A DNA stretch of 64,000 nucleotides from an uncultured Actinomycetes bacterium (GTDB lineage: Bacteria; Actinomycetota; UBA4738; HRBIN12). The notes below the pieces were generated by a model that was not told where the DNA came from, ran no database searches, and saw nothing but the letters and a program-made list of their open reading frames with translations. Position 1 is the first letter of the stretch. Every line of letters begins with the position of its first letter. The stretch is from positions 2,316,173-2,380,172 of the forward strand of contig CAVQPR010000001.1 of assembly GCA_963714865.1 (NCBI GenBank), given 5' to 3'. Of this stretch, positions 4,091-40,450 are shown piece by piece. A program made the translations under genes and the position numbers.

Positions 4091-5695
4091 TCACGGAGTT
4101 GCGAAAGGTGCGTCAGCCGCCGAATCCTCGGTATCGAGGAGATAGGTCACGACGTCGGTCGCCAAGTACCTGCGTCGACCGCCTCTCAGCAATCGACCCA
4201 GCGCCTTGACGTCGTCGCCGGCCGTCACGATCGGCGGCTCCTCGAGCCCCTGTCGACGTTGCCCGAGGCCCACCGTCGCGGCCAGGCCGTTGCACACGCA
4301 CTTTCGGCCATCGAGCTCGGTGGGAGCACCGCCCTTGCGCAGGTAGTCGGCGGCGGGCTCGGCCGGGCACCGGTATCCGAGTCGACCCTGCGGTGTCACG
4401 AACACCTCGCGCAGGTACCCGAGGTCGCACTTACGTTCGCGACCGATGGCTATCACTGTGTCCGAGAGCGTGCCCTCCAGGCTGACCACCTTGAACGGGA
4501 ACCCCGTGGGGGAAGCGAGCGGGTCCGTGAACACGGTCGCGGCCCCCGACTCCACCTCGTGGAGGACCTGTTCTCGTAGCGCCGGCGCGATGCCCGATTC
4601 CTCGCAGAACGCGAAGAGCGTTCCCACCTGGATGCCGACTGCCCCGGCCTCGAGTGCGAGGCGCAGCCGTTCGGGTGTGGCCTGCCCTCCCGCGAGCCAG
4701 AACGGGAGGCCGAGCTCGCCGACCTTCGCCAGGTCGACCTCGTCTCGAGGCCCGTAGACGGGCTGGCCCTCCTCAAGAGGGGCTGACCCCCGCGGCGGGG
4801 CGTTGTGACCCCCGGCCGTCGGCCCTTCGATCACGAACCCATCGACGCCCGGGGTCTTGCGGGCGAGGCTGATCGCGAGGGCCGTCGAGGCGATGATCGC
4901 CAGGAACATCGGTCGCGCCAGCGGCGGGCCCGGCTCCGACACGACGCGCTTCGGATCGAAGTCGAGGGTGACGCGGTCACCGTTCACGACGTGCAGCGGC
5001 AGGGCAACCCGGTGGTGATCGGCCAGCCCATCGAGTAGCTGGGGGATCTCGCGGGGGATACCTGCGCCGACGAGCACGGCATCGACTCCGGCGAGCATCG
5101 CCCCATACAGGGTCGGCGGCGTCGGCAACTGGACCTTTTCGAGGAAGTTGATCCCGACGACCCCGTCGTGGCCCTCCTTCGCGAGCCACACCTCAACGAA
5201 ACCACCCATCGTTGCGAGGTCGAGGCTTGGACCGCGTGGCTCGGCGGTGAACATCGGCACGGATCTGAAGGCCGCCTCAGGGTCGATGCCTCCCTTCACG
5301 AAGTAGCCGTCGAAGATCCGCTGGGCCACATCGGGGTCGGGGTAGGCCGCCATGGCCCGGCGGACATCGCCGTCGGGATCGCCCAACTGCAGCCGCCGGG
5401 CGAGCACCATGTCGAGTGCGGTGCCGGACACGACTCCGAGTTGCCCGGTGCGCGAGACCGCGCCAGCGAGCCGCCACCCTGAGACCGCCACGCCCATGCC
5501 GCCTTGGATGATCGGCGGCAGGTGGTTCACAACATGCCCCGAGCGAGGACTGAACGGAGCGAGATCTGGAGCAAGATCAGGAGCGAGCGTTGCACGCACC
5601 AAGGCTAGCAGGGGGGCGGCTCGGACCAGCGCGGTCGTCTCGCGGTTGCGGCCGGTGCCCGCCTCCCCAGCCGGTTGCTCGAGTCCGGCCGTCAC
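4091..5695 (-). CDS. Nitronate monooxygenase / NPD-family FMN oxidoreductase (start uncertain, possibly the GTG at 5530)
   Basis: LPPIIQGGMGVAVSGWRLAGAVSRTGQLGVVSG near the N-terminus and FVIEGPTAGGHN mid-protein. The first ~55 codons of the longest ORF (LAPDLAPDLAP low complexity) may not be translated. Confidence 0.7.
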   Translation of the reverse strand: MTAGLEQPAGEAGTGRNRETTALVRAAPLLALVRATLAPDLAPDLAPFSPRSGHVVNHLPPIIQGGMGVAVSGWRLAGAVSRTGQLGVVSGTALDMVLARRLQLGDPDGDVRRAMAAYPDPDVAQRIFDGYFVKGGIDPEAAFRSVPMFTAEPRGPSLDLATMGGFVEVWLAKEGHDGVVGINFLEKVQLPTPPTLYGAMLAGVDAVLVGAGIPREIPQLLDGLADHHRVALPLHVVNGDRVTLDFDPKRVVSEPGPPLARPMFLAIIASTALAISLARKTPGVDGFVIEGPTAGGHNAPPRGSAPLEEGQPVYGPRDEVDLAKVGELGLPFWLAGGQATPERLRLALEAGAVGIQVGTLFAFCEESGIAPALREQVLHEVESGAATVFTDPLASPTGFPFKVVSLEGTLSDTVIAIGRERKCDLGYLREVFVTPQGRLGYRCPAEPAADYLRKGGAPTELDGRKCVCNGLAATVGLGQRRQGLEEPPIVTAGDDVKALGRLLRGGRRRYLATDVVTYLLDTEDSAADAPFATP

Positions 5696-24593: not shown

Positions 24594-25784
24594 CTAGTCG
24601 GGGAGCAGCGGCACGTGAAGGCCCTCGCGCCGCCCGACGAGGACCCCCCGGGTGATGGCCGACGAGCCGTAGCGGTCACGAACGGCGTCGAGCGTGGCGT
24701 CCAGGGAAGATCCGAGCGGGTCATCGAACGGCAACGCCAGCTGGATCGCGCAGTCGTCGTGCAGGTTGGTGAAGCTCAGTCCGATCAGCGTGATGCCCCG
24801 ATCCCGGATCATCGGCATGGCGGCGGCGAGCAGGGCCTTCGCGACCTCGAGCGTCGCCTCGGTGTCGGCGGTGGCCTCGGGCAGCGTGTGCGACCGCGTC
24901 GCTTGGCCGAAGTCGTCGAACCGGAGGCGCAGAACCACAGTGCGACAGACCCGGTGAGCTGCGCGCAGCCGGCGCGCCAGGCGGTCCACCAACGCGATCA
25001 GATCGGCGTCGAGCTCCTCCGGCGATCGTGGCCTTCGGCCGAGCGCTCGTTGCGTGCCGATCGATCGGCGCCGGCGACCGACATCGACCCTGCGAGGGTC
25101 TCGGTTGTGAGCGAGCGCGTGCAGGTGACGCCCGACCGCGCGCCCGAGGATCCGCACGAGGGACGCCTCGCCGAGCGCCGCAACATCGGCCACCGTGGTG
25201 ATCGAGCGCTCCCGGAGCTTCGTTGCGGTCACCGGCCCCACCCCCCACAGGCGCTCAACGGGGAGCGGGTGGAGGAACTCGAGCTCCCCGTCGACGGGGA
25301 CCACCAGCAGGCCATCGGGCTTCGCGACCCCGCTCGCGACCTTGGCGAGGAACTTGGTCCGAGCAACTCCCACGCTGACCGGCAGCCCGACCCGGTCGAG
25401 TACCTGGCGGCGCAGCCGCACGGCGATCTCGGTCGGCGTGCCCGAGACCCGCCGCAGCCCCCCGACGTCCAGGAACGCCTCGTCGATCGACAGCCCCTCC
25501 ACGAAGGGCGTGGTGTCGTTGAACACCTGGAACATCGCCTTGCTCGCCTCGCTGTACGCGTCCATGCGCGGCGCCACGACGACCGCCTGCGGACACAACC
25601 GGCGGGCCTGGACCCCGCCCATGGGTGCGTGCACCCCGTACGCCTTGGCCTCGTAGCTGGCGGCGAGCACGACGCCGCCGCCGACGATGACGGGGCAACC
25701 CCTCAGCGTCGGGTCGTCGCGCTGTTCGACCGACGCGTAGAAGGAGTCGGCGTCCGCGTGCAGGATTGTGCCCTCGCTCGACAC
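24594..25784 (-). CDS. dinB: DNA polymerase IV (Y-family)
   Basis: ILHADADSFYASVEQRDDP, EGLSIDEAFLDV and VSVGVARTKFLAKVAS motifs. Confidence 0.9.
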   Translation of the reverse strand: MSSEGTILHADADSFYASVEQRDDPTLRGCPVIVGGGVVLAASYEAKAYGVHAPMGGVQARRLCPQAVVVAPRMDAYSEASKAMFQVFNDTTPFVEGLSIDEAFLDVGGLRRVSGTPTEIAVRLRRQVLDRVGLPVSVGVARTKFLAKVASGVAKPDGLLVVPVDGELEFLHPLPVERLWGVGPVTATKLRERSITTVADVAALGEASLVRILGRAVGRHLHALAHNRDPRRVDVGRRRRSIGTQRALGRRPRSPEELDADLIALVDRLARRLRAAHRVCRTVVLRLRFDDFGQATRSHTLPEATADTEATLEVAKALLAAAMPMIRDRGITLIGLSFTNLHDDCAIQLALPFDDPLGSSLDATLDAVRDRYGSSAITRGVLVGRREGLHVPLLPD

Positions 25785-27251: not shown

Positions 27252-28877
27252 CTACGCATCCGGGCGGGTGGCCGCGTCTTCGGCTCGGTACTCCTCCAGC
27301 AGGTTGATCTCGTCTTCTCGACCCGGGAACATGAAGCGGACGAGGACCGCGCCCAACGTCACCGCCACGATCCCCGCGAGGTAGGCCCACTCGTCACCTT
27401 GGAGGAACGCCGTCTTCGCCGCCGCCGTGATCTGGTCCGCGTACTTCGGGTATTGAGCTCCGACCGCCTCGGCGCTCGCGAACGACTTGGTGAGCTGGGC
27501 CTGCACGCTGTCGTTGATGTGCTTGGGGGCGGCGGCGATCTGGGAGGCCATCGCGGAGGCGTACCCCGCGGCCAGCAGCGCCCCGAAGATCGACTGCAGG
27601 ATCGCGCCCCCGAGGTCACGTTGCAGGTCGGCCGTGCCCGACGCCATCCCCGCTCGGGACACGGGAACGGAACCGGTCAGCGAATGTGAGGCGGGGGTGC
27701 CCGCGAACCCGACACCGGCGCCCACGAACGCGTAGGCGAGCCCGACCTCCCAGTAGGGAGTCCCGTCGTCCCAGAGCAGGAGCATCGTGAAGAAGCCGAG
27801 CAGGCAGAGGGCGTAACCGGTGAGCAGGGTGAATCGCGCCCCCCTCGCCTCCACCAACTTGGCCGACCGGGGAGCGATCACGACCATCATGACGGCCGCC
27901 GGCAGGATCGCGAGCCCGGCGTCGAGGGTGTCGTACCCGAGCACGTTCTGGAGGAATTGCTGCCCGACGAACATCGCGCCCATGAGAGAGCCGAACACGA
28001 TGATCCCGGCGCAGGCGGCGACCCAGAAGATGCGTCGCCCGGCCACGTGCAGGTCGTAAAGGGGGTTGGCGGCGCGGCGCTGCCGGATGACGAACGCGAT
28101 GCCCGACGCGATCACGATCGCGCCGAGCCCGATCACGAGCGCCGTCGAGTTCGGGACGGCCGCGAAGTTGATCGACATCACGAACGCGGCGACGAGCACG
28201 ACCGAGAGCACGCCGCCGAGGTTGTCCACGGGCTCGGTCGACTCGTTGACATGAGCCGGGACGTACCTCGCGGCCAGATACAGCGCGACCACCGCGAGGG
28301 GGAGCGTGATCAGGAACACCGAGCCCCACCAGTAGTTCTCGAGCAGGAGTCCCGCGCACAGCGGGCCGAGCGCGGAGATGGCGCCGCCCAGGCCCGACCA
28401 CAAAGCGATGGACTTGGTGCGTCCGGGGCCCGACCACAGGGCGGTGATGAGCGCCAGCGTCGTCGGATACGCCATACCGGCGGCGAGCCCGCCGCCGAGT
28501 CGAGCGATGAAGAGCACCGTGTCGGATGGGGCCCAGGCCGCCAGCAGGCTCATCGGGATGGCCAGCGCCGTCCCGATGATCAGCACGGCCTTGCGGCCGT
28601 GGCGGTCGCCGAGCGCCCCGAAGTAGAGGACCGAGCACGCCAGCCCGAGCGAGTAGCCGACCGCGATGAGGTTCAGCGTGGTCTGTGAGGAGTCGAACGC
28701 TGCCCCGATCGACGGGAGCGCGACGTTGGCGACGGCGAGATTCAGGTTCGCGACGGCCGCGACGAGGATCAGCGCGGCGAGGACGAGGCCTTGCCGCGTA
28801 GGAGCTTCGGGAGTTTCCTTTGATGAAGCGATAGGCGAGGACCTTACCTCGGTCTCAATCCTCAGGCGAGCCGACAT
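27252..28877 (-). CDS. MFS transporter, DHA2/EmrB-like (14 TM)
   Basis: LNLAVANVALPSIG and GALGDRHGRK motifs and 14 hydrophobic segments. The start overlaps the cyclase 3' end by 23 nt. Confidence 0.8.
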   Translation of the reverse strand: MSARLRIETEVRSSPIASSKETPEAPTRQGLVLAALILVAAVANLNLAVANVALPSIGAAFDSSQTTLNLIAVGYSLGLACSVLYFGALGDRHGRKAVLIIGTALAIPMSLLAAWAPSDTVLFIARLGGGLAAGMAYPTTLALITALWSGPGRTKSIALWSGLGGAISALGPLCAGLLLENYWWGSVFLITLPLAVVALYLAARYVPAHVNESTEPVDNLGGVLSVVLVAAFVMSINFAAVPNSTALVIGLGAIVIASGIAFVIRQRRAANPLYDLHVAGRRIFWVAACAGIIVFGSLMGAMFVGQQFLQNVLGYDTLDAGLAILPAAVMMVVIAPRSAKLVEARGARFTLLTGYALCLLGFFTMLLLWDDGTPYWEVGLAYAFVGAGVGFAGTPASHSLTGSVPVSRAGMASGTADLQRDLGGAILQSIFGALLAAGYASAMASQIAAAPKHINDSVQAQLTKSFASAEAVGAQYPKYADQITAAAKTAFLQGDEWAYLAGIVAVTLGAVLVRFMFPGREDEINLLEEYRAEDAATRPDA

Positions 28878-30471
28878 CGACCCAAAGGACGCCCCGATCC
28901 TCGTCGGGCATGAGAGATAGGACAGCCCCGCCGGCCCGATAGAGCAGTTCGCTCTGATCCGTCACTGGATCCACCCGGTAGACCTCGCCGCCCGTATCGC
29001 CGACCCAGAGGGCGTCCAATCCGACGGCAAGCGCGCTGGGATCCGAGCCCACCTGTGCGGTGAGCGAGGAGCCCAACTCGAACAGCGTTCCACTCGACCG
29101 ACTGAGCACCCACAGCTCGCCATCGAGTAGCGCGATGGCGTCGACCCCATTCGTGATGACCTGGGGTTCATCCGGTCTCATCGTGCGCGGATCGACCCTC
29201 GTCACGGTGCCGGCGAACGAGTCGAAGGTCCACACCGAGTCCCCGTCGGCCACCACTCCGTCGGTCTGGGTGCCGTTGCCCTCCAGCGTTCGGATGTCCG
29301 TGGGATCCTCCGTGTTGATCCTCCACAGGGTGCCGTTGGCGTCCGCGAGCCAGACCCATCCACCGCCGACGGCGATGCCGTTCAACCAGAAGAACGTCGG
29401 TGTCCCGATCTTGAGTCGGGCGAACGGGGCGGCCTTGTCGTCGGTCGGGTCCACGGTATACAGATCCTTGACCGCGACCCACAGTCGATCGGCGCCGATA
29501 GCGATCGACTGTGGGTATCCGGTCTCCCCCCACGCCCCGTGTGTGATGGGTGGGTCACCCACCTCGTCGTGGTCGGGATCCACGTGGAGGATCACGCTGT
29601 CGCGGACGAGCCACACGCCACCCTTGCCGGCGACGCCCACCGAAGAAGCTGGGCTGTAGGAGAGAGACCGGGGCTGCAGATGGATCGGGATCACCTGGGT
29701 TGCGTCGCCGGTCTCCGGGTCGAGGCCCACCAGCGAGCTGGCGGGCGGACCGGTGGCGCCGGAGGGGGGTGTTGCGTCCGATCCCCGGTTGGTCATCACC
29801 GCCATCACGCCGGCGATCACCGCCAGCCCGACGACCCCTCCGACCAGGAGTGCCGATCGGCGGCTCCTTGTGGGCTCGGGGCCGCTCGACTCGTCCCGAC
29901 GGCGGCGCGCCAGGTCGGCGTCGGACTCGGGAGCCCCCACCGGCTCGCCGTCGAGCCCGGTGACCTCATATACATGGACCGCATCCTCGAGCCCCTTGAG
30001 GTGGTGCGCGCCGCGGTCGGCGAACGCGATACCGGCGCCCGGCATGATGTCCTTGACCGACGACGAGGTCAGCACCTGGCCGGCGCCCGCCTGGCCCATG
30101 ATGCGGGCCGCCGAGACCACCACGAGCCCTCCGGGTTTGCCGTCGACGTCTTCGACCTGGCCGAAGCTGACCCCGGCACGTATCTCGATCCCCAACGCCC
30201 GGACCTGGCCTTGGGTGGCGATCGCGCATCGCACTGCGTCGGCCGGGACCTCGAAGGTCGCGAAGAACCCATCGCCGGCCGTGTCGCGTTCACGCCCCCC
30301 GAACCGCTTGAGGTTGGCGCGCATGATCGAATGGTGTCGCGTGACCAGCACGCGCCAGCGCACATCCCCAAGCTCGGAGGCGATCTCGGTCGATCCGACG
30401 ATGTCGGTGAACAGCGCCGCGGCGAGTCGTCGGTCGCCGCCGCGTCGTCCCATCGGCGGAGTGTGCGTCAC
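28855..30471 (-). CDS. Class III adenylate/guanylate cyclase with TM helix and C-terminal extracytoplasmic beta-propeller-like domain
   Basis: AALFTDIVGSTEIA...RDTAGDGFFATF...IRAGVSFGQV cyclase core. Then TM ALLVGGVVGLAVIAGVMAVMT and repeated WV...G(T)L.R(I/V)DP blades. Confidence 0.8.
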   Translation of the reverse strand: MTHTPPMGRRGGDRRLAAALFTDIVGSTEIASELGDVRWRVLVTRHHSIMRANLKRFGGRERDTAGDGFFATFEVPADAVRCAIATQGQVRALGIEIRAGVSFGQVEDVDGKPGGLVVVSAARIMGQAGAGQVLTSSSVKDIMPGAGIAFADRGAHHLKGLEDAVHVYEVTGLDGEPVGAPESDADLARRRRDESSGPEPTRSRRSALLVGGVVGLAVIAGVMAVMTNRGSDATPPSGATGPPASSLVGLDPETGDATQVIPIHLQPRSLSYSPASSVGVAGKGGVWLVRDSVILHVDPDHDEVGDPPITHGAWGETGYPQSIAIGADRLWVAVKDLYTVDPTDDKAAPFARLKIGTPTFFWLNGIAVGGGWVWLADANGTLWRINTEDPTDIRTLEGNGTQTDGVVADGDSVWTFDSFAGTVTRVDPRTMRPDEPQVITNGVDAIALLDGELWVLSRSSGTLFELGSSLTAQVGSDPSALAVGLDALWVGDTGGEVYRVDPVTDQSELLYRAGGAVLSLMPDEDRGVLWVDVGSPED

Positions 30472-30507: not shown

Positions 30508-31227
30508 TCAGCCGATGCCACCGCGGCGCGCCAGCGCCTCGCGGTTCGTGATGGACACCGTCCGTCCGTCGAGCTCGATGAATCCCCGTCCCTGGAGCGC
30601 GTGCAAGATCTGGTTCACGCTCTGGCGCGAGCCGCCCACCATCGATGCGAGGTCTCCCTGCGTCAGGCCGAGGTCGAGTTCGATCCCGTCGGCGGACTCA
30701 ACTCCGCGCTCGTCGGCCAGCTCGATCAACAGCTTGGCGACTCGCCCCTCCAGGTCCAAGAAGACGAGGTCGGCCGCGTGACTCGTCGTCCGCCGCAAGA
30801 GCCGGCCGCCCGAGCGCAGGAGGGAGTCCGCAACCGCGGGGGAGTGCGAGACGAGCTCGATGAAGTCGCTCCTGGGGATCGCGAGCGCCGTGACGTCCTC
30901 CAACGCCTCGACGCACGCGGACCGGGGCCCCCCGTCCAGCATCGACACCTCGCCGACGGTGTCGGGGGGGCGCAGGGTGGCAAGCACCATCTCTTGGCCC
31001 GCTCCCGATGAAACGAACACCTTCACGGTCCCTGATGCGAGTACGTAGAACGCGTCTCCGGCGTCTCCCTCGAAGAAGAGCGTCGAGCCGGTCCGGTAGG
31101 TGCGCACCTGTGTTCGTTCGGCCACCGCCTCGAGGGCGGGCCGATCGAGTGTCGAGAACAACTCTGCCGATGCCAGCGTCTCGAGCACACGCGTTCGCTC
31201 CACCGGCGCAGTGTATCCGCGTCTCAC
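30508..31227 (-). CDS. Crp/Fnr-family cNMP-binding transcriptional regulator
   Basis: cNMP domain (FFEGDAGDAFYVLASGTVKV...VGEVSMLDGGPRSA) and C-terminal HTH (LTQGDLASMVGGSRQSVNQILHAL). Confidence 0.85.
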   Translation of the reverse strand: MRRGYTAPVERTRVLETLASAELFSTLDRPALEAVAERTQVRTYRTGSTLFFEGDAGDAFYVLASGTVKVFVSSGAGQEMVLATLRPPDTVGEVSMLDGGPRSACVEALEDVTALAIPRSDFIELVSHSPAVADSLLRSGGRLLRRTTSHAADLVFLDLEGRVAKLLIELADERGVESADGIELDLGLTQGDLASMVGGSRQSVNQILHALQGRGFIELDGRTVSITNREALARRGGIG

Positions 31228-31240
31228 CCTCCGACGCGAT

Positions 31241-32074
31241 TCAGGCCGAGGAGCCGGGAGCCGCGGAGCCGACGTTTCGGGCCAGCGCCATCAGCACCGT
31301 CTTGGCTTGGAAGGCCGTGAGCTCGGGGTGCTTGGCCAGGATCAGGGTCAGGATGCCGGCGATGTGCGGGGCGGCGAACGAGTTCCCGGTCGCCACGATG
31401 GTTCCTCCCTCGAGCCAGGGCACCTCGATATCGATGCCGGGCGCTCCCCACTCGGCCGGGGGCGACGGATTGAAGTCGAAGGCGAAGGGGTCGTCGACGT
31501 CCTCGTGGGATGCGACCGAGAACACCGACGAGTACGTCGCGGGGAAGCTCGGCCCCGGCATGTTGTTGATGGCGCACACGAGCATCGATCGGCGAAAGGC
31601 GGCCTCGTCGGCCAACCGGTGGAAGACCGAGTAGTAGTCGCGCTTGCCGGTGGACAGCGAGAGGTTGATCACCCGCATGTCGTTGCGGATCGCCCACTCG
31701 AGCCCCGCCGCGAACACGAACCCCTTGCCGGTGAGCCTGGATCCGAGCACCCGCACGCTGTGGATGCTGCAATCGGGAGCCAGCCTGCGGATGATCCCGG
31801 CGCACGCGGTCCCGTGGCCGTACAGATCCTCGTGTTCGCCTTCGATGTACCGCACGCCGCTCGGAGCGTCGGGGTCGTACTCGAGGGCGATCCCGCCGTC
31901 AACGCCGCCGACCCACGGGTGATCCGCATCGATCCCGGAATCGAGCACGGCGACCTTCACGCTGGCACCCGTACTGTCGCCCCACGCCCACTCGGGCGTG
32001 ATGGCATGCGGGAGATCGATGTCGACGTGCTCGAGGGCACCCGGTTGGAAGGCCCACGACCATGCCGGACGCAC
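31241..32074 (-). CDS. S8 (subtilisin-family) serine peptidase, minimal catalytic domain without signal peptide or propeptide
   Basis: Catalytic triad motifs VAVLDSGID (Asp), HGTACAG (His) and GNSFAAPHIAG (Ser). The N-terminus is not hydrophobic. Confidence 0.85.
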   Translation of the reverse strand: MRPAWSWAFQPGALEHVDIDLPHAITPEWAWGDSTGASVKVAVLDSGIDADHPWVGGVDGGIALEYDPDAPSGVRYIEGEHEDLYGHGTACAGIIRRLAPDCSIHSVRVLGSRLTGKGFVFAAGLEWAIRNDMRVINLSLSTGKRDYYSVFHRLADEAAFRRSMLVCAINNMPGPSFPATYSSVFSVASHEDVDDPFAFDFNPSPPAEWGAPGIDIEVPWLEGGTIVATGNSFAAPHIAGILTLILAKHPELTAFQAKTVLMALARNVGSAAPGSSA

Positions 32075-32076
32075 GG

Positions 32077-32817
32077 CTAGCCCCGCTTCCCCTGCGCGTA
32101 GCGGAGCAAGGCGACGAGCAGCTCGGTGGCCGCCGCCCGTTCGCTCGGTCCGAGACGTCCGATCTCGTAGAAGAGGTCGAGGAGCTCGGCCAGGTTCTTC
32201 GATGTACCGCGCGACGTTCGAGCGATCTCCTCGAGGGCCGACTTGACGTCGCCGTCGCCCGCGGCCTCCGCTGCGGCTCGAAACATCACGCGTCCCAGGT
32301 GACCGAACAGCTTCGTCGTCTCGATGGCGACTGCGGCCTGATGCGCGAGAGAGGCGACGAGTCGGGCGTGCTCATGCCCGTGCTCCAGCCCCTCCTCGGC
32401 ATCGAGGATCTCCATCACGCCCATGAGTCCTGCGTCGGTCTCCAGAGGGATCGCGAACACGGACCGAGGCGTGAAGCCGGTCTTGGCGGCCACGTCGGCG
32501 GCGAACCGGGGGTCGCTGGGAGCGTCGGTGATCGTGATCGACTGACCCGAGGCGATCGCCCAACCTGCGATCCCATGCCCGGCGTCCATCTCGATCCCGA
32601 CGACCTGCTCGCCGGCGGAGCCCGCAGCAGCCACGAACGTCAGCTTCTCGGTTCGCTCGTCAAACACCGCGAGCGAGGCGCCCGCCGCACCGGTGATGTC
32701 CACCGCCGTCTGCGTGATCCACTCGAGCAGGTCCTGGTATCCGGGTGGCTCGATCGCGGGGCCGATGTCGGCTGCGGCCTGGGCGATCTCCTCGAAGGGT
32801 CGGACATCGTCGGTCAT
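32077..32817 (-). CDS. GAF-domain protein with helical C-terminal extension
   Basis: GASLAVFDERTEKLTFVAAAG...HGIAGWAIASGQSITITDAPSDPRF...SVFAIPLETDAGLMGVMEILD. Only a 2-nt gap to the S8 gene. Confidence 0.75.
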   Translation of the reverse strand: MTDDVRPFEEIAQAAADIGPAIEPPGYQDLLEWITQTAVDITGAAGASLAVFDERTEKLTFVAAAGSAGEQVVGIEMDAGHGIAGWAIASGQSITITDAPSDPRFAADVAAKTGFTPRSVFAIPLETDAGLMGVMEILDAEEGLEHGHEHARLVASLAHQAAVAIETTKLFGHLGRVMFRAAAEAAGDGDVKSALEEIARTSRGTSKNLAELLDLFYEIGRLGPSERAAATELLVALLRYAQGKRG

Positions 32818-32978
32818 CGCCGGGTGATGCTACCGGTCTTTCGTTCTTCGAGTGAGGACTGTCGGCGATCTGACAGCCCTCGTGTCCGATACATGACAGC
32901 ATCCTCGAGTTGCGTGAACGAAGATGCCCGTAGCAGGATGAGCTCGAGAGGCGAGCTCCCACCCGGAAGGAGGGTCGC

Positions 32979-33308
32979 ATGTCGGACCAGGAGATGCGCG
33001 AGCAGGCCGAGGAAGACGTCGAGGGCCAGCGGCAGAGCAAGCGCCTCGACGAGAGCGACGACGTCGAGGGTCAGAAGCGGCATCACCTCGCCGAGACCGA
33101 GGACGACGTCGAGGGTCAGAAGCGGCATCACCTCGCCGAGACCGAGGACGACGTCGAGGGTCAGAAGCGGCATCACCTCGCCGAGACCGAGGACGACGTC
33201 GAGGGTCAGAAGCGGCATCACCTCGCCGAGACCGAGGACGACGTCGAGGGCCAGGTGCGGCGGCATCTCGCCGAGGACGACACCCAGGGACAGATCAGGT
33301 CCATCTGA
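32979..33308 (+). CDS. Acidic tandem-repeat peptide 1 (109 aa; 4 x DVEGQKRHHLAETED plus related flanking units)
   Basis: GGAAGGAGG lies 6 nt before the ATG. G/C-rich third codon positions in this frame. A GC hairpin follows the stop. N- and C-termini are shared with the paralogue. Confidence 0.65.
   Translation: MSDQEMREQAEEDVEGQRQSKRLDESDDVEGQKRHHLAETEDDVEGQKRHHLAETEDDVEGQKRHHLAETEDDVEGQKRHHLAETEDDVEGQVRRHLAEDDTQGQIRSI
33060..33239 (+). repeat. Four nucleotide-perfect 45-nt in-frame tandem units
   Basis: gacgtcgagggtcagaagcggcatcacctcgccgagaccgaggac starts at 33060, 33105, 33150 and 33195. Degenerate units flank the array. Confidence 0.95.
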
Positions 33309-33326
33309 CGACAGAGCGCGCGATGA

Positions 33327-33350
33327 GGGGGCCGCCTTCGGCGGCCTCTT
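33327..33350 (+). terminator. GC-rich hairpin after repeat-peptide gene 1
   Basis: GGCCGCC-ttcg-GGCGGCC at 33330-33347. No T-tract. Confidence 0.4.
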
Positions 33351-33483
33351 CGCGTCCCCGCGGTAGTCGGGAACCAGACACCGCAAATGTCGGCGAACCG
33401 ACAGCGCTCCGCGAGCGCGTCGACGAGCGTGGTATCTGCGGATGGACTCGAGACACGAGCTCCTACCCGGAAGGAGGATCGGG

Positions 33484-33684
33484 ATGTCGGACCAAGAGAT
33501 CCGAGAGCAGCCTGAGGACGACGCCGAAGGTCTGCGTCAGAGCAAGCGCCTCGACGAGGCCGACGACGCCGAAGGTCTGCGTCAGAGCAAGCGCCTCGAC
33601 GAGGCCGACGACGCCGAAGGTCTGCGTCAGAGCAAGCGCCTCGACGAGGCCGACGACACCCAGGGGCAGATCAGGTCCCACTGA
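33484..33684 (+). CDS. Acidic tandem-repeat peptide 2 (66 aa; 3 x DAEGLRQSKRLDEAD)
   Basis: GGAAGGAGG lies 7 nt before the ATG at 33484. This start was chosen by homology to gene 1; the longest ORF starts at 33442. Shares MSDQEIREQ...DDTQGQIRSH with the paralogue and is followed by a hairpin. Confidence 0.6.
   Translation: MSDQEIREQPEDDAEGLRQSKRLDEADDAEGLRQSKRLDEADDAEGLRQSKRLDEADDTQGQIRSH
33520..33654 (+). repeat. Three nucleotide-perfect 45-nt in-frame tandem units
   Basis: gacgccgaaggtctgcgtcagagcaagcgcctcgacgaggccgac starts at 33520, 33565 and 33610. Confidence 0.95.
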
Positions 33685-33704
33685 CCTCAGCGGGATGCGA
33701 TGAC

Positions 33705-33724
33705 GGGCCGCCCTCGGGCGGCCC
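33705..33724. terminator. GC hairpin between convergent genes (peptide 2 and MFS-cNMP)
   Basis: GGGCCGCCC/GGGCGGCCC arms. Sequence-similar to the hairpin after peptide gene 1. Confidence 0.4.
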
Positions 33725-33733
33725 TCTCGCTGT

Positions 33734-35410
33734 TCAGGAGTGGCCCAGTTCCTCGTAGGGATCCGAGACCGCCAGTCGGTTCGCCACGACCGACGTCAGG
33801 GTCGTCGATAGCCGAGGCCCCTCGTTCAGGATGCGGAGGAAGGCCTCCCCCGAGATCCGGTAAAGGACGACATCAGTGAGGACCACCACCGAGGCCGTCC
33901 TTGGCCGCCTCTCCAGCAGTCCGATCTCGCCGAAGTAGTCGCCCGGCTCGAGGGTAGCCAGAAGCTCGCCCTCCTTGCGAACCTCGAGGTTCCCCGACAC
34001 GACTCCGAACAGATCGTCCGCCTCGTCGTCTTCACGGATCACGACATCTCCCGGCACCAGGCGTTCCTCGACGAGGCTCGCTGCCAGTCCTTCGAGTTGC
34101 TGAGGCGTCGCACCCTCGAAGATCCCGAGTTGCTCGAGCAACGCGACGCGCGGGGAGAGCTCGAGCGCGCGGGCCGCTCCCGCGCGGTCCATCGAGCGCG
34201 CCGTCGGGAGCGTCACGAGGGTGACGACGAGCAGGACCCCCCCGGCGAAGGCCGTAGCGACCGAGAGGCCGAAGACCTCGATCATCACCGGTGCTATCAG
34301 CGAACCGATCACCATCCCGATCACCGACACGGCGCCCAGGATGCCGAACGCGCTGCCGACCCGCTCGTTCGGCACGACCCGTTGCAGCGTGGTGGTCGTG
34401 ATCACGTCCGCCACGATCACCGCCGCTCCCTCCACGACGAGGAGGGCGATGGCGAGCGTCGGGTCGTGGACCACCGACAACAGCGTGAGCGGCACGCCGC
34501 CGATCAGGACCGCGAGCGTCAGCGCCCGGGCCGTGTGCGAGCGGGCGGCGAGGCGCGCTGCCAGGCCCGTGACGACGATCCCGCCGATCCCCGGTGCAGC
34601 GAACAGCAGTCCGGTGGCGTCGATGCCGATCCCCAGGGAATCTGCGGCGATCGGGCCGTAGAGCACGACCTCCTGACCGAAGGTGAGTCCGAACGCGAAG
34701 CCCAATCCGATCAACAGGATCGCCTCGCTCGAGCCCCTGATCACCGCGATCCCGGCGTGGATCCGAGACAGAAGGCCCTGTTCGGCCTCGACGTCGCCGA
34801 CCTTGCCCGTCACGCCCATCCGCGCAACGAGGAGTGCAGATACGAGGAAGGTCATACCGTTCACGGCGATGGCGATCGGGGGCGGCCCCAGCAAGAGCAG
34901 CACCGCCGACAGCCCGGGACCGAAGGCGAGTGCGAAGTTGTCGATGGTGCCTGCGAGCGCATTGGCTGCAGCGAGGTCCTTCTCGGGCACGACCGAGGGC
35001 GTGAGCGCGGTAACCGCGGGGTAGTAGGGAGCTGTGAAGGTGTTGTTCACGAACGTGAGGGCGATGACGACGATCACGGCCGTCGTCGACGATGAGGTGG
35101 CGACCACGGCCATCACACACATCACGGCAGCTCGGGCCAGGTCTGCGGAGATCAGCACCTTCCTGCGGTCGAACCGATCTGCGATCGCCCCGCCGAGCGG
35201 CTCGAACAGGACATACGGCGCGAGACGCACGACCGCGGCCACGCCGACCCAGACGGGGGAGTCGGTGGCCTCCAAGATGTAGATGACCGTCGCGGCCGCG
35301 TAGAGCCAGTTCCCGGTCTCGGATACCGCCAGGCTCGCGAGCAGGAGCCGGTAGTCGCGATGCGAGAGCGCCGACCTGAATCGTCGCTCGCGCGCCCTGC
35401 CCAGCGTCAT
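33734..35410 (-). CDS. MFS transporter fused to a C-terminal cyclic-nucleotide-binding domain
   Basis: Twelve TM helices, then FEGATPQQLEGLAASLVEERLVPGDVVIREDDEADDLFGVVSGNLEV...GDYFGEIGLLERRPRTASV (cNMP fold). Confidence 0.8.
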   Translation of the reverse strand: MTLGRARERRFRSALSHRDYRLLLASLAVSETGNWLYAAATVIYILEATDSPVWVGVAAVVRLAPYVLFEPLGGAIADRFDRRKVLISADLARAAVMCVMAVVATSSSTTAVIVVIALTFVNNTFTAPYYPAVTALTPSVVPEKDLAAANALAGTIDNFALAFGPGLSAVLLLLGPPPIAIAVNGMTFLVSALLVARMGVTGKVGDVEAEQGLLSRIHAGIAVIRGSSEAILLIGLGFAFGLTFGQEVVLYGPIAADSLGIGIDATGLLFAAPGIGGIVVTGLAARLAARSHTARALTLAVLIGGVPLTLLSVVHDPTLAIALLVVEGAAVIVADVITTTTLQRVVPNERVGSAFGILGAVSVIGMVIGSLIAPVMIEVFGLSVATAFAGGVLLVVTLVTLPTARSMDRAGAARALELSPRVALLEQLGIFEGATPQQLEGLAASLVEERLVPGDVVIREDDEADDLFGVVSGNLEVRKEGELLATLEPGDYFGEIGLLERRPRTASVVVLTDVVLYRISGEAFLRILNEGPRLSTTLTSVVANRLAVSDPYEELGHS

Positions 35411-36348: not shown

Positions 36349-38976
36349 CTAGAAGGCCGTGAAGGTCTTCGAGAATCGACCGGCCGCCGGGTTGCCCGAC
36401 GCGTCCTCCAGCACGGCGGCCGGCACGTAGACGATCGTCACCGAGCCCACCGTGCCGAGGGATGCGCATCCGCTCCCTCCGCAGGTTCCTCCGACCGTCG
36501 CCGTGAGGATGTCATTCGGGGCGACGAGCGCGAGCTCGGAGCCCGTCCACGAGGCCGATGCACCGTTCGTTCCCACGTATCCGTCGTCGCCCGCGTCTAT
36601 GGAGCCCTGGATGAACCCCGCGATGGCAAGGCGGTCATCGCCAGACCCCGACGGGTCGGACAGCGTGAACGTGGTCGAGGGCGCCACGCTCGCCGGATCG
36701 AGCGGCTCGCTCCACTCGACCGTGAGCGAGTCACCCGCCTCGATCAGTCCGAGCGTGCCCGCGTTCTTCTTGCGCACCGCGATCGGAACGGGACCGGCCC
36801 GGTCGATCGGGGTCACCGCGCCGAGTGAAGGGCGGTTCCCGGCGGCGTCCTGGATCTGGTTCGGCGTCGTGAGTGACACCCTGAGGCTGCCGACCGTCGT
36901 GTCGTGATCACCCGCTCCCTCGGCGATCCGCAGCGTGGCGACGCTGCCGGATACCGACACGGATGCCAGGGTGCCCCTTGACGGGATGCCCGTCACGACC
37001 CAGCCCGCAACGCAGGCGCCGACACAGGATGCGAGCGGCTCGTTGAACAGGACCCGGATCGCGTCGATCCGCCCGTCGGAATCCTCGTCGAGCATCTGGG
37101 TGCCCGTCCGTCCCGGGGCCGTGCCGTCGCCAGGGTCCTTGACCCGGACGATCGTGAAGCGTTTCACCCGGTTGTTCGACCTGTTCGGGTCGAGGCCCCC
37201 CGCCGTCGCCCTCGGTTTGAAGACGACGGTCATCGGCTCGCCGGGAGCTCGAACGGTGAGTCTGATCTTCTGGGTCGCGCCCTTCGGGAGCTTGCGAACG
37301 ATGCAGGTCACCGTCGATCCCACCGAACACCATCCGGGCACCGACCTCAACGTGGTTCCGGCGGGGATCGGCGCCTTCACGACGATCCTCTTCGCCTTGC
37401 GTGGCCCCAGGTTGCCGACCTTCAGCGTGTAGGTGAGCGGCGTGCCCGGCGCGACCTTGTTCCAAGAGGCCACCGTCAATGAGACGTCGGCCGAGCCGCC
37501 CCCTCGCTTCACCACGGTCGTGGCCGCGGCGGAGTTGTTGCCGGACGAAGGATCGTTCGCGTTCGAGGCCACGCGCACTCGGTTGGTTCGCTTGCCGGCG
37601 GCTCCTGCGCGCGCCTTGATCATCACATCGATCTCCTCGCCGACATCGAGGTTGCCCAGGCTGCATGTCAGCGTTCTCGTGGCCGCGTCGAAGGCGCATC
37701 CGGCGTTGTCGCTGCGGTACGTGAGGGACGCCGGCAGCGTGTCCGTCACCACCACGCCGGTCGCCAGATCCGGTCCTGCGTTCGTCACCCTCGCCTGGTA
37801 GGTGATCATCGCGCCGGAGTTCACAGGATCGGGGGAGGCGGTCATCGTCACCCGCAGGTCGGCGCGGGACGCCAGGCCCGTGTCGGTGAACTGGGCGAAG
37901 TGCGGCGCGAACCTTCCCGCCACATGATCGAAGTCGCCACCCACGTACAACTTGTTGTTGTGGCCCTCAACCGCGAAGACACCGAGGAACCCGTTCGAAG
38001 TCGGCAGCCAACTCGTGTCCAGCGCGCCCGTGGCGGGGTCGACCCTCACGAGCTGCTGAACGGCCACCCCGTCGTAGGTGAAGAAGTGACCTCCGAAGAA
38101 CGCGAAGTCGCCCTGGACCCCCACCCCCTGGATGTTGCCGTCACCTCGCTCCTCCCACAGGCGGGCCCCGGTCGCCAGGTTCATCGCCGCCGCCCGGCCG
38201 CCTCCGCCGCCCCCGGCAAGGAACAGGCGCGCCCCGTCCGCCGCCATGTCGAGCACCGGGTACAAGGGGTGGTAGGGGATCGCGATGGAGGCGCCCGACG
38301 TCGGGTGAACGGCCGCCAGGCGCCCCTGGTTGGTTCCGTTGACCTGAACGAAGTTGCCGCCGAGGTAGACGCGACCAGAGGCGGGCACGATCGCGCGGAC
38401 GAGATCGTCCGCGGAGGGGTTCCAGGTCCCGAGGGAGGCGTCATCGACGTCGACGGACGCCAGACGCTCTCGAGCGGTTCCTCCGATCGACGTGAAACTG
38501 CCCCCCACGTACAGGGTGGTCCCGTCGACCGCCAGCGCGCGCACGGTCGAGTTCGGGGATGGAGCTTTCCACGGCAGGAGATCCCACGTTGTGGTGTCGT
38601 AGGCGGCGAGCTTCCGGCGGCTGATACCGTCCGCCTGGTTGAAGTTCCCGCCGACGAACAACGTGCCGCCGTCCTCGGAGAGCGCCAAGGCAAACACCTT
38701 GCCGTCCAGGTTGGGGTTCCATGTGGTCGGCTCTCCGGTCGAGGCGCTGAGCGAGCCCAGGAAGTTCCTCGTCACGCTGCTGGCTCGGTTCCGAAGTCGT
38801 CCGAAATCCCCGCCGAGGACGACGACGCTGCCCACCCGCAGGATCGCGTTCACGCGCTCGTCGGCCCCCCATATGTCGTCGGGTTGCTGCTGGACCGCGG
38901 CATGGACGGCGGGAGCGAACGTGGCGACGAGCGCGACGACGAGGGCGACCAGCACGGAGCGACGACCGATGTTCAC
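36349..38976 (-). CDS. Secreted multidomain surface protein (beta-propeller repeats, DUF11-type repeat domains, Ig-like C-terminal modules)
   Basis: Signal peptide ...VATFAPAVHA. Repeated GG.F....G..R..LAA blades. DUF11-like LRVTMTASPDPVNSGAMITYQARVTNAGPD...TDTLP. Confidence 0.7.
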   Translation of the reverse strand: MNIGRRSVLVALVVALVATFAPAVHAAVQQQPDDIWGADERVNAILRVGSVVVLGGDFGRLRNRASSVTRNFLGSLSASTGEPTTWNPNLDGKVFALALSEDGGTLFVGGNFNQADGISRRKLAAYDTTTWDLLPWKAPSPNSTVRALAVDGTTLYVGGSFTSIGGTARERLASVDVDDASLGTWNPSADDLVRAIVPASGRVYLGGNFVQVNGTNQGRLAAVHPTSGASIAIPYHPLYPVLDMAADGARLFLAGGGGGGRAAAMNLATGARLWEERGDGNIQGVGVQGDFAFFGGHFFTYDGVAVQQLVRVDPATGALDTSWLPTSNGFLGVFAVEGHNNKLYVGGDFDHVAGRFAPHFAQFTDTGLASRADLRVTMTASPDPVNSGAMITYQARVTNAGPDLATGVVVTDTLPASLTYRSDNAGCAFDAATRTLTCSLGNLDVGEEIDVMIKARAGAAGKRTNRVRVASNANDPSSGNNSAAATTVVKRGGGSADVSLTVASWNKVAPGTPLTYTLKVGNLGPRKAKRIVVKAPIPAGTTLRSVPGWCSVGSTVTCIVRKLPKGATQKIRLTVRAPGEPMTVVFKPRATAGGLDPNRSNNRVKRFTIVRVKDPGDGTAPGRTGTQMLDEDSDGRIDAIRVLFNEPLASCVGACVAGWVVTGIPSRGTLASVSVSGSVATLRIAEGAGDHDTTVGSLRVSLTTPNQIQDAAGNRPSLGAVTPIDRAGPVPIAVRKKNAGTLGLIEAGDSLTVEWSEPLDPASVAPSTTFTLSDPSGSGDDRLAIAGFIQGSIDAGDDGYVGTNGASASWTGSELALVAPNDILTATVGGTCGGSGCASLGTVGSVTIVYVPAAVLEDASGNPAAGRFSKTFTAF

Positions 38977-39219: not shown

Positions 39220-39265
39220 CGCCGGTCGACCGGACCGACCAGATCGAGGGATGAAGGAACGGGTC

Positions 39266-40450
<1,185 letters not shown>

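Follow-up and report, generated by a model that had tools for sequence, protein, structure and literature searches.

Acidic tandem-repeat proteins within a conserved cyclic-nucleotide gene module of Actinomycetota and Chloroflexota

Two repeat genes and their neighbours

The window, i.e. the whole 64-kb stretch of DNA that was analysed, contains two paralogous plus-strand mini-genes whose start codons lie 505 nt apart, as stated in the original prediction. Gene 1 (32979-33308, plus strand) encodes an acidic repeat protein of 109 residues with seven DD-x-[EQ]-G motifs and was assigned from its open reading frame, codon-position GC content and orthologues. Its paralogue, gene 2 (33484-33684, plus strand), encodes 66 residues and was assigned from the open reading frame, exact repeats and codon-position GC content. 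The conserved start of gene 2 is at 33484; a longer reading frame from 33442 begins at a non-conserved site. The GC fractions of the three codon positions are 0.82, 0.30 and 0.89 in gene 1 and 0.79, 0.39 and 0.81 in gene 2, in agreement with the predicted G/C-rich third positions in this frame.

The predicted exact 45-nt copies were recovered with TRF. Four exact units encoding DVEGQKRHHLAETED occupy 33060-33239 of gene 1 (plus strand; 4.9 copies, score 396), and three encoding DDAEGLRQSKRLDEA form the array of gene 2 (33517-33651, plus strand; 3.1 copies, 100%). In gene 1 the first unit belongs to the gene 2 type. One KR pair per unit had been predicted, which holds for all window units except the last one of gene 1, where RR takes its place. 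Both proteins share the ends MSDQE(M/I)REQ and DDTQGQIRS(I/H), as described before. Since the cassettes are 81% identical in the leader and 78% identical in C-terminus and terminator, i.e. outside the arrays, the proposed duplication of the whole cassette is upheld. Such an arrangement lies far outside what chance would produce, and orthologues laid out alike are present in each related locus that offers enough sequence.

A composition count found neither Cys nor aromatic residues in the two gene products. The N-terminus reads MSDQEMREQAEE and a hydrophobic stretch is absent throughout the protein, which means that there is no signal peptide. With isoelectric points of 4.6 (gene 1) and 4.4 (gene 2) and a GRAVY of -1.7, the earlier description of acidic proteins devoid of Cys and signal peptide was accurate. 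In the gene 1 protein 32% of the residues are acidic and 9 residues are His; the gene 2 protein has a single His. A counted Gly content of 6.4% together with the GRAVY value formally corresponds to a hydrophilin composition, but these criteria are unspecific. The single-sequence AF2 model of the gene 1 protein is a continuous helix from residue 3 to 107 (pLDDT 93); such a single-helix model is unsuited to fold comparison. With regard to the ER/K pattern of single alpha-helices, the units of both genes are rich in Asp and Gly, and the unit length of orthologues ranges from 10 to 18 residues.

The leader of gene 1 contains the stem-loop GAGCTCG-AGAGG-CGAGCTC (32940-32958, plus strand), which has its counterpart in gene 2 (33444-33462, plus strand; alignment A1). 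Covariation supports both: across 14 loci 98.8% of the cells are paired, with compensatory changes in three of six pairs, none of 500 shuffles reached the observed score and slid controls dropped to 18-60% paired. No Rfam family covers this stem-loop. A Shine-Dalgarno sequence, GGAAGGAGG, follows in gene 1 (32965-32973, plus strand; conserved in alignment A1) and in gene 2 (33469-33477, plus strand). The predicted GAGCTC...GAGCTC hairpin and ribosome site are therefore present, while the spacing to the ATG had to be corrected from 6-7 nt to 5 nt in gene 1 and 6 nt in gene 2.

A scan with E. coli-type consensus promoters and terminators, which are ill-suited to this GC-rich genome, returned no matches. 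In its place, promoter and terminators were assigned by comparative conservation and folding. A tentative gene 1 promoter (32910-32939, plus strand) consists of TTGCGT (32910-32915), an 18-nt spacer and CAGGAT (32934-32939); in alignment A1 TTGC and, within the second hexamer, the A/T show little or no variation. CAGGAT as the -10 element would put the start of transcription inside the leader hairpin, and the promoter assignment is therefore provisional. The GC hairpins expected after each gene were confirmed by folding. The terminator-like hairpin of gene 1 (33325-33351, plus strand; -23.9 kcal/mol, z -2.2) was missed by the consensus scan because it has no U-tract, and that of gene 2 (33688-33732, plus strand; -30.7 kcal/mol, z -3.7) is common to this gene and the convergent MFS gene.

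Divergent from gene 1 lies a gene for a GAF-domain protein of 246 residues (32077-32817, minus strand; Pfam GAF_2, 6e-16), in which the GAF domain is joined to a helical C-terminal region of about 75 residues; its single-sequence structure model has a pLDDT of 44. It is followed by an S8 subtilase of 277 residues (31241-32074, minus strand), cytoplasmic and with an intact D/H/S triad. Peptidase_S8 is the one domain matched in this protein, and propeptide, signal peptide and P-domain are all absent. Further along the minus strand are a Crp-family regulator (30508-31227; cNMP_binding and HTH_Crp_2 in a domain search) and a class III nucleotidyl-cyclase-like protein of 538 residues with a weak domain match (28855-30471; Pfam Guanylate_cyc, 5.4e-07). 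On the other side, convergent with gene 2, the domain search identified an MFS_3 transporter with a C-terminal cNMP-binding domain (33734-35410, minus strand).

The best solved relative of the S8 protein is subtilisin BPN', in which residue 166 forms the base of the S1 pocket; a Ser rather than an acidic residue is aligned to this position. Its best curated partial matches are QhpE and mycosin-type compact S8 proteases (94 and 95 bits). Of these, QhpE is a subtilase of small size that works in the cytoplasm and processes a small peptide partner. The module S8, however, scores far under the family cut-offs of 165 and 279, and neither QHNDH nor type VII secretion genes are found near it.

Operators and the Crp-family regulator

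A pair of palindromes precedes each repeat gene. Operator 1 of gene 1, TGTCGGCGATCTGACA (32860-32875), is an exact TGTC-N8-GACA and a putative Cmr/CooA-type CRP-family site with 4C/13G; operator 2, TGTCCGATACATGACA (32883-32898), begins 23 nt after it, resulting in a layout of 16+7+16 nt. The palindrome scan placed the gene 2 pair at 33365-33403, with AGTCGGGAACCAGACA (33365-33380) and TGTCGGCGAACCGACA (33388-33403) again 23 nt apart. Throughout the 64-kb window there are three exact matches to TGTC-N8-GACA, all before gene 1 or gene 2, and the only two tandem pairs with at most one mismatch in total are those of the two genes. The position of operator 1 is kept in 14 aligned loci. All 18 type-B repeat genes examined have TGTC-N8-GACA upstream; in 155 kb of type-B loci 23 palindromes were counted against 1.07 expected, 20 of them 100-160 nt ahead of the array. 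Type A, type B and distant family members have the 16+7+16 nt layout in common.

The Cmr/CooA-type site is a 16-bp palindrome, TGTCA-N6-(C/T)GACA, with the discriminators 4C/13G (PMC4705688, PMC5758884). The recognition helix of the window regulator reads S-R-Q-S-V-N, and R-Q (as R-Q-S-V-N) was found in eight of eight module regulators examined. In CRP_Mt a Glu at the position equivalent to this Gln reads 4G/13C (PMC5758884). The module regulator thus resembles Cmr (Rv1675c) and CooA in having 4C/13G operators and an altered residue where position 4/13 is read, but this residue is Pro in Cmr and Gln in the module. Moreover, a strict tandem pair with 23-bp spacing before one dedicated target is undescribed for Cmr. 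In overall sequence the module regulator is closer to GlxR/CRP_Mt (E 5e-42) than to Cmr, and it keeps the phosphate-binding residues G-E...R-S of the GlxR/CRP_Mt alignment. Taken together, control of the repeat genes by a cNMP-responsive Crp-family regulator is well supported by sequence comparison.

The repeat family and its module in related genomes

Exhaustive phmmer and profile searches yielded at least 693 proteins of the repeat family. The family was recovered only in this manner, i.e. by exhaustive search combined with a family profile; word-indexed single-protein searches gave a single match with gene 1 and no match with gene 2. Pfam and NCBIfam contain no matching family for the two window proteins and 14 relatives, all 120 of the 120 homologues listed are named 'hypothetical' and carry no Pfam domain, and a literature search on peptide motifs and gene context found no description of the family. 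Hence, the repeat family is undescribed so far, as had been supposed. A Pfam match of gene 2 to AKAP7_RIRII_bdg was rejected, its score being inflated by the repeats.

Members are small (about 45-150 residues), strongly acidic tandem-repeat proteins that are cytoplasmic by sequence. Their hallmark is L-x-E-D-D-[TAV]-E-G-[Q/H], recurring every 10-18 residues and followed by a variable, mostly basic spacer. The spacer is uniform within one protein and hypervariable between species. The original prediction regarded the proteins as punctuated by dibasic pairs. This feature is not conserved among orthologues: KR, KK or RR is missing from most units of five loci (L002, L007, L008, L011, L016) and from many type-B units, while DD-x-E-G-[Q/H] is invariant there. 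The hallmark of the family is accordingly the acidic motif and not the KR pair. His is likewise dispensable, being absent from the repeat proteins of L009, L010 and L014. Codons of the D-D-x-E-G core vary synonymously (Gly: GGC 42, GGT 33, GGG 7; Glu: GAG 64, GAA 18). Two points that had been put forward for checking in relatives were followed up. Copy number differs between near-identical strains (L009/L010, L039/L040, L041/L044), and the frame is kept through the arrays, with units of 36-48 nt, in all short-read assemblies. In long-read MAGs, the repeat mini-genes are systematically broken.

Repeat gene, Crp regulator, GAF protein, propeptide-less S8 and MFS_3-cNMP occur together in both Actinomycetota and Chloroflexota, at about 100 loci in all. 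The linkage to the GAF-S8 operon, first noted in the window, persists in two phyla and under three different gene orders. Class III cyclases usually lie close by and are found in most related loci. In type A the divergent mini-gene is present in 17 of 17 genome loci and in each metagenome locus with enough upstream sequence. Type B has the order MFS-cNMP > GAF > S8 > Crp > repeat (about 23 of 29 covered loci; GAF about 35% identical), and the Chloroflexota-like type C the order Crp > repeat > GAF > S8 > MFS-cNMP. Orthologues of the GAF protein were found at 97 loci, full length being kept down to 35% identity. S8 directly follows GAF in 69 of 80 metagenome loci, the contigs of the others being incomplete. 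The MFS-cNMP gene is syntenic in all type-A and most type-B and type-C loci. Conservation is highest in S8 among the module proteins (83-86% identity within type A, 62% to type B) and in the acidic motif within the repeat protein. An apparent GAF-S8 fusion in L001 was rejected as an indel artefact.

S8-GAF pairs also occur without a repeat gene; in annotated plasmid relatives with such a pair, the small neighbouring genes were rejected as family members. Approached from the repeat-protein side, three of nine informative contexts have no S8 or GAF gene within 3-9 kb, yet motif and operators are kept. Therefore, conservation of the motif cannot rest solely on an adjacent S8. The operator pair and the association with cyclase and Crp were seen in nine of these nine contexts, S8 linkage in six. 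Of all associations of the repeat genes, that with cyclic-nucleotide signalling (Crp operators, MFS-cNMP, cyclases) is the most universal; it had been overlooked in the original prediction. It is very probable that the repeat genes constitute a real family under Crp-type control within a cNMP module.

Possible functions and comparison with known systems

On the basis of the comparative evidence, a cNMP-responsive Crp(R-Q) would bind the two TGTC-N8-GACA operators and control transcription of the repeat gene as well as, in the window, the divergent GAF-S8 operon. Leader hairpin and strong Shine-Dalgarno sequence would provide high expression. The repeat protein may then be the dedicated substrate of the GAF-partnered S8, recognised by the invariant acidic motif, and the conserved GAF-S8 linkage makes such a precursor/protease relation plausible. 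Intact triad and missing secretion signal also speak for S8 as the partner. A single cut per unit, not at KR, would fit the subsites of subtilases, with T/A/V at P4, E at P3, G at P2 and Q/H/M/L at P1, and would release KRHHLAETEDDVEGQ in about four copies from the gene 1 protein and RQSKRLDEADDAEGL from that of gene 2. Spacers that are uniform within and variable between proteins match, by analogy, the recognition-sequence and core pattern of multi-core precursors. Against a precursor, concerted evolution alone can yield homogeneous spacers, and the AF2 model is a helix rather than an extended substrate. We judge the chances of the repeat protein being an S8 substrate to be just short of even and those of the whole chain up to this processing to be somewhat lower. 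Of the mechanisms considered, a cut by S8 at the motif with subsequent export would be the likeliest. Finally, the unit peptides might be exported by the cNMP-gated MFS_3, which we regard as doubtful; transporters of this type are best known for small molecules. A self-inducing circuit is also conceivable, in which S8-released unit peptides are exported by the MFS or sensed by TPR/STAND cyclases and cAMP acts through the R-Q Crp on the precursor gene, the spacers serving as pherotypes and the repeat number as gain control. As a complete scheme we consider it rather improbable.

The main competitor of the substrate reading is a protein that acts intact inside the cell, namely a cAMP/Crp-induced charged polyampholyte, disordered or forming a single helix. 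It might serve as a multivalent ligand of the GAF protein or of TPR/STAND cyclases, as a hydrophilin or as a scaffold, with S8 responsible for turnover and the MFS unrelated. The greater universality of operator pair and cyclase/Crp association over S8 linkage, the continuous AF2 helix, the formal hydrophilin composition and short repeated motifs whose variable spacing is that of independent linear motifs all favour such an effector. However, three rearrangements have not separated the precursor-sized gene from protease and exporter, and such a gene set is the classic make-up of a peptide-product locus. In addition, the spacer is hypervariable across species, the very fast gain and loss of units is unusual given a defined binding partner, and a single-sequence AF2 helix of a charged repeat is weak evidence. 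We therefore consider an intact effector unlikely, though a serious candidate; the original prediction had itself named a disordered hydrophilin-like or metal-binding protein as its alternative, and this competitor still stands. Improbable, in our estimation, is a buffer in which the carboxylate-rich DD-x-E-G-[H/Q] binds Ca2+, Mg2+, Mn2+ or transition metals and links cNMP to ion homeostasis. The acidic residues and His of the gene 1 protein, His-rich type-B units such as DDVEGHVHR and a Na+/H+ exchanger gene adjoining the repeat gene in L111 point in this direction, but His is dispensable, as seen in gene 2 and in the three loci with none, and the dedicated protease would be left without a role. 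Two specific forms of metal binding were rejected: the acidic residues are not placed as in the canonical EF-hand (DxDxDG) loop, and the His required for an ATCUN (X-X-His) reading of E-G-H is Gln in type A.

The original prediction had favoured a Kex2-like polyprotein cut at dibasic KR, releasing HHLAETEDDVEGQKR and LDEADDAEGLRQSKR as 15-mers. The KR or RR pairs of all window units and the linked S8 gene suit this view. Because the dibasic pairs are unconserved, the repeat protein has no signal peptide and S8 has no kexin P-domain, these 15-mers are probably in the wrong register; S8 being nearest to subtilisin BPN', with Ser at position 166, and the missing secretory-pathway context also count against them. 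This makes dibasic cleavage highly improbable. An anti-phage defence module of the Pycsar, CBASS or Avs kind, in which a cyclase signal activates cNMP-binding effectors and the protease, has a very remote chance of being correct. Cyclases, STAND NTPases (AAA_16, NB-ARC, TPR), cNMP-binding proteins and a protease do co-occur and PADLOC matched its PycTIR and PycC models, but these matches are confined to a generic cNMP-binding domain and a generic subtilase, and no PADLOC model matches the window cyclase. Furthermore, the module is syntenic and vertically conserved in many related genomes rather than patchy, and we know of no Pycsar or CBASS system that employs a transcription factor of the Crp type together with an operator dedicated to it. 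Hardly any weight is left for fortuitous reading frames over non-coding tandem-repeat DNA. Long spurious frames do overlap in other phases, as is usual at 68% GC, and several Nanopore-based MAGs have frame breaks in the array. On the contigs with such breaks, however, the adjacent GAF gene carries an obvious indel artefact as well, whereas short-read assemblies are all intact and the unit length is divisible by three in every case. Frame-specific GC3, synonymous variation under an invariant motif, a strong Shine-Dalgarno sequence and a conserved N-terminus argue for translation.

Among described peptide systems, cyanobactins (PatE, PatA/PatG) are similar in having a small multi-cassette precursor with conserved recognition flanks and short segments that vary strongly among species, cytoplasmic S8 protease domains and clustered genes (see also the RiPP protease review PMC10885120). 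In contrast, the window S8 reaches 16 bits against a cut-off of 421 in the PatA/PatG model TIGR03895, and the acidic DD-x-EG element and the cNMP wiring set the window locus apart. Genes for a cyanobactin-type heterocyclase, macrocyclase, DUF or prenyltransferase are absent from the window locus, in which only GAF, Crp, cyclase and MFS genes adjoin. The multi-cassette form with conserved flanks, which is found in the window family, does not by itself establish membership of the cyanobactins. Fungal Kex2-processed repeat proteins and repeat-type RiPP precursors (dikaritins; epichloecyclin GigA, KexB; PMC10540207, PMC9233826) likewise combine near-identical tandem units with a linked S8-family protease. 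Their precursors, however, have signal peptides and invariant dibasic sites and are processed by a P-domain kexin in the secretory pathway, whereas the window proteins have neither signal peptide nor conserved dibasic pair and the linked S8 consists of no more than a subtilisin-like core. In the Phr/Rap (RRNPP) systems of Firmicutes, a small precursor encoded beside its regulator is matured by subtilisin-family proteases to a species-specific active segment that is sensed by TPR receptors. TPR/STAND cyclases, present in relatives, are reminiscent of this arrangement. Phr precursors, in contrast, are Sec-exported, cut outside the cell and yield one or few peptides without acidic repeats, and no Rap-like gene is present in the 64-kb window.

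To our knowledge, cyclases, cNMP-binding transporters and CRP paralogues are numerous in the cNMP signalling of Actinomycetota, mycobacteria included, and for the most part their targets have not been identified. The module offers a testable cNMP output with one dedicated conserved target gene, a defined operator pair, a protease and a cNMP-gated transporter. In addition, at least about 700 small proteins that had no name can be given a family definition together with a genomic context and a regulatory motif. Should the repeat proteins be precursors, they would be the first case in bacteria of cytoplasmic peptide factories that are built from tandem repeats and controlled by a second messenger, and uncultured soil lineages might supply new signalling or bioactive peptides. 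The peptide-cAMP circuit, if true, would constitute a new class of signalling by peptides in the Actinomycetota and Chloroflexota. Repeat proteins that act intact would form a new class of cAMP effector proteins. The locus points to a new peptide or effector system of soil bacteria that is controlled by a signal.

The repeat mini-genes and their family

Gene 1 (32979-33308, plus strand, 109 aa) and gene 2 (33484-33684, plus strand, 66 aa), both read in the window sequence, are indeed the two paralogous plus-strand genes of the original prediction, with four exact 45-nt units at 33060-33239 and three at 33517-33651 (both plus strand), respectively; unit 1 of gene 1 belongs to the gene-2 type. 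Each is preceded by the Shine-Dalgarno site GGAAGGAGG. The common termini MSDQE(M/I)REQ (N-terminal) and DDTQGQIRS(I/H) (C-terminal) are present in both, as are the GC hairpins expected at the 3' ends (-23.9 kcal/mol, z -2.2 for gene 1; -30.7 kcal/mol, z -3.7 for gene 2, by folding). Since the cassettes are 78-81% identical outside the arrays, the entire unit was duplicated, as had been proposed. The GC content of the three codon positions is 0.82/0.30/0.89 in gene 1 and 0.79/0.39/0.81 in gene 2, which agrees with the G/C-rich third positions described earlier and, in a genome of 68% GC, identifies this frame as coding. Overlapping long ORFs in other frames are ordinary high-GC artefacts. A match of gene 2 to the Pfam model AKAP7_RIRII_bdg (27.4 bits, gathering cut-off 22.7) consists of two 16-residue stretches on the repeats and was judged a repeat-inflated false positive; the model describes a PKA regulatory-subunit binding helix, which is curious given the cAMP context.

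Single-sequence word-indexed protein searches returned one relative, on a contig syntenic with the window, and an exhaustive phmmer search returned small proteins in which D-x-E-G-[Q/H] motifs recur, amid low-complexity noise. A profile built from 26 members (E<=1e-3) recovered at least 693 family proteins of 60-130 aa, all named 'hypothetical' and none with a Pfam domain, from sources including Streptosporangiaceae and Candidatus Limnocylindria (Chloroflexota). All relatives are metagenome-derived. No Pfam or NCBIfam model covers the repeat proteins and no account of them was found in the literature search, in line with the earlier statement that no described bacterial family is known to match. 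Hence, the family is unnamed and undescribed in curated families, annotated records and searchable papers.

The motif was dissected in 57 distinct units, with positions counted from its Gly, which is invariant. Glu occupies -1 in 54/56 units, Asp -3 in 55/56 and -4 in 52/56, position -2 is Thr, Ala or Val, and Leu is found at -7 in 38 units. Position +1 is Gln (45 units), His (6), Met (4) or Leu (2); the related loci L004 and L029 differ here by a Gln-to-His exchange. The motifs are separated by about 3-7 mainly basic residues, which vary in sequence and length by species (e.g. KKH, RLGKH, VHRPK, KVTRPK, RRRQAG and QLRKPK in loci with the gene order of the window, type A; GYKRE, VHR, GSRPR, ATPHGR and FRR in type B). 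The predicted dibasic (KR) punctuation is not conserved, since most units of five orthologues lack a dibasic pair. The invariant core is encoded by synonymous codons, which shows selection on the peptide. Because the units of the members examined are 10 to 18 residues long, no structural periodicity is conserved, and each unit behaves like an independent short motif. AF2 without an alignment predicts a single long helix (pLDDT 93), which for a charged Asp/Gly-rich repeat is weak evidence. One sub-family (proteins P0004, P0006, P0015, P0023, P0039 and P0040, loci L020 and L026) combines a ~35-aa leader (…VAELIDPV..ELERELTSREW…) with longer aromatic spacers (EGQGYRWxGL); it has the operator pair described below and adjoins cyclase-STAND genes, with no S8 or GAF gene within the sequence in view.

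Exact unit identity is also found in loci L002, L005, L008 and L009. The suggested search for copy-number variation was successful: the near-identical strains L009 and L010 have 8 and 10 motifs, and the pairs L039/L040 and L041/L044 likewise differ. Array frames are broken only in Nanopore-derived MAGs, one with a broken neighbouring GAF gene too, and all short-read assemblies are intact. Such indel breaks in arrays and neighbour genes (long-read MAGs L001, L006, L013, L015, L017 and L018) cause gene callers to shorten or skip the mini-genes, and an apparent GAF-S8 'fusion' in L001 is of the same origin. In L042 (1-700, minus strand), a 1.2-kb contig, a mini-gene start (MSDQELQAQSDEDVEGH) is in frame with an HU/IHF-like DNA-binding protein, which probably reflects chimeric assembly and not a real fusion.

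The surrounding module

On the minus strand, the divergent operon comprises genes for a GAF protein (32077-32817), S8 subtilase (31241-32074), Crp-family regulator (30508-31227) and cyclase-like protein (28855-30471). Gene 2 converges on the gene of an MFS_3 transporter (33734-35410, minus strand) that has a cNMP-binding domain at its C-terminus. The S8 protein (277 aa) amounts to a subtilisin-like core whose Asp/His/Ser triad is intact; it has neither signal peptide nor propeptide nor P-domain. Among curated models its best partial matches, mycosin and QhpE, are both far under cut-off, and its nearest solved relative is subtilisin BPN'. The GAF gene appears leaderless (32815-32833, minus strand): a -10-like TAGCAT (plus-strand reading GATGCTAC, 32826-32833) lies 9 nt ahead of its ATG (32817) and is kept in all type-A loci. 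No relation was seen to other window genes, among them an 875-aa DUF11/beta-propeller repeat protein (36349-38976), EF-Tu (39251-40450) and a DinB-type polymerase (24594-25784).

The proposed check on co-occurrence with GAF-S8 pairs revealed linkage in three gene orders. MFS-cNMP, divergent mini-gene, GAF and S8 are ordered as in the window in 17/17 type-A genome loci, most having a Crp gene at a distance of 1-5 kb. In metagenome loci S8 follows GAF in 69/80, the remainder being truncated contigs, and every type-A metagenome locus with sufficient upstream sequence has the mini-gene. In type B (MFS-cNMP > GAF > S8 > Crp > repeat gene, MTEQNxTPD...DDTEGH...), GAF and S8 are ~35% and ~62% identical to the window type; the repeat gene is present in ~23/29 covered loci, with DDTTGH (L084) and a form with two motifs (L087) counted as variants, and such counts depend on contig extent and on the motif patterns used. 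Type C, on Chloroflexota-type contigs, reads Crp > repeat > GAF > S8 > MFS-cNMP. The module of L103 lies between two paralogous repeat genes (1662-1814, minus; 4936-5088, plus), both with an operator of their own; this duplication is independent of the window's tandem pair, to which it is analogous.

S8-GAF pairs without a DD-x-EG repeat gene (S8 41-46% identical) occur on a Miltoncostaea oceani megaplasmid (L108, NZ_CP064357) and a Streptomyces sp. NBC_00184 plasmid (L109, NZ_CP108138, adjoining a radical-SAM cluster), so S8-GAF may be a more general cassette. One pair follows a sigma factor and is itself followed by MBL and MFS genes; the other shows translational coupling to a 1052-aa cyclase and adjoins radical-SAM genes together with an 'aroma-sacti cluster' small protein. 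In the lineage of L097 (8205-9287) and L100 (2705-3362) the post-Crp operator is kept (L100, 2713) and is followed by a secreted trypsin-like protease gene, with no repeat gene.

Operators, regulator and leader

Each element of the region between GAF and the mini-gene is conserved across loci. These are, in order, two palindromes, TTGC, an A...T hexamer, a stem-loop, CCACCC, Shine-Dalgarno site and start codon (ATG). Exact TGTC-N8-GACA occurs three times in the 64-kb window, always ahead of gene 1 or gene 2. If one mismatch is tolerated, a pair appears before gene 2 too, with the 23-nt spacing of the gene 1 pair; the window has no other such pair. The 155 kb of 18 type-B loci contain 23 exact palindromes, where 1.07 would be expected and no more than 4 appear in any of 200 shuffles; 20 of the 23 lie 100-160 nt ahead of the array, invariably forming a 16+7+16 nt pair. 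Distant family members without S8 nearby have this pair in front of them as well.

The Cmr site of M. tuberculosis, TGTCA-N6-(C/T)GACA, is almost identical to the CooA site (PMC4705688), and its 4C/13G discriminate against CRP_Mt because Glu189 of CRP_Mt reads 4G/13C (PMC5758884). Judged by sequence, the module operators are of this Cmr/CooA type. The module regulators are GlxR/CRP_Mt-like by sequence, with Gln at the discriminating helix position (R-Q-S-V-N) in 8/8 examined. We infer that the module Crp would bind these operators, with the repeat gene as its dedicated target. Further sites (L114, 1039, 4954 and 9724, an identical 16-mer three times; L024, 494/517; L091, 5808) sit before AAA_16/cyclase genes, an SCO4226-like gene and a GAF operon; given those before AAA_16/cyclase genes, the R-Q Crp may count the cyclases themselves among its targets.

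Covariation supports the leader stem-loop, in which 98.8% of cells are paired, with compensatory changes in 3/6 pairs, and controls collapse; its role is probably transcript stabilisation. The best -35/-10 pair is a provisional one, as it would place the transcription start inside this stem-loop.

Possible fate of the repeat protein

The repeat proteins constitute a real gene family within a conserved five-part cNMP module, with an operator pair dedicated to it and a regulator helix to match. Through three gene orders, genes for a small repeat protein, a cytoplasmic protease and an exporter remain together, a composition that suggests a peptide-product locus. The most conserved protein of the module is S8, and within the repeat protein conservation is highest in the acidic motif. 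The motif also suits the subsite preferences of subtilases, with a small hydrophobic residue at P4 and an uncharged one (Gln, His, Met or Leu) at P1. On these grounds we tentatively favour a reading in which S8 would cut the repeat protein once per unit, at the acidic motif, and the products would leave through the cNMP-gated MFS; its probability is somewhat below even.

The main rival, an intact intracellular effector, is somewhat less probable. It draws on three protein-side contexts without S8 and on the more universal link to Crp and/or cyclase (9/9 informative contexts) than to S8/GAF (6/9). That the protein is a metal buffer is improbable, and a defence system is very improbable. Dibasic processing is slightly less probable than metal buffering. 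The least probable reading is a non-coding repeat, which hardly comes into consideration.

In its working the locus would come closest to multi-cassette precursor systems, among them the cyanobactins and the fungal Kex2-processed repeats, with an operator of the Cmr/CooA type. By the membership tests it falls outside each of these precursor families: it lacks the PatA/PatG protease and tailoring genes of the former, and the signal peptide, conserved dibasic site and kexin of the latter. Neither the repeat proteins nor the module are described in curated families, annotated records or searchable literature. With a biochemistry that is proposed and a parts list and regulation that are well supported, we rate the module as a new kind of system.
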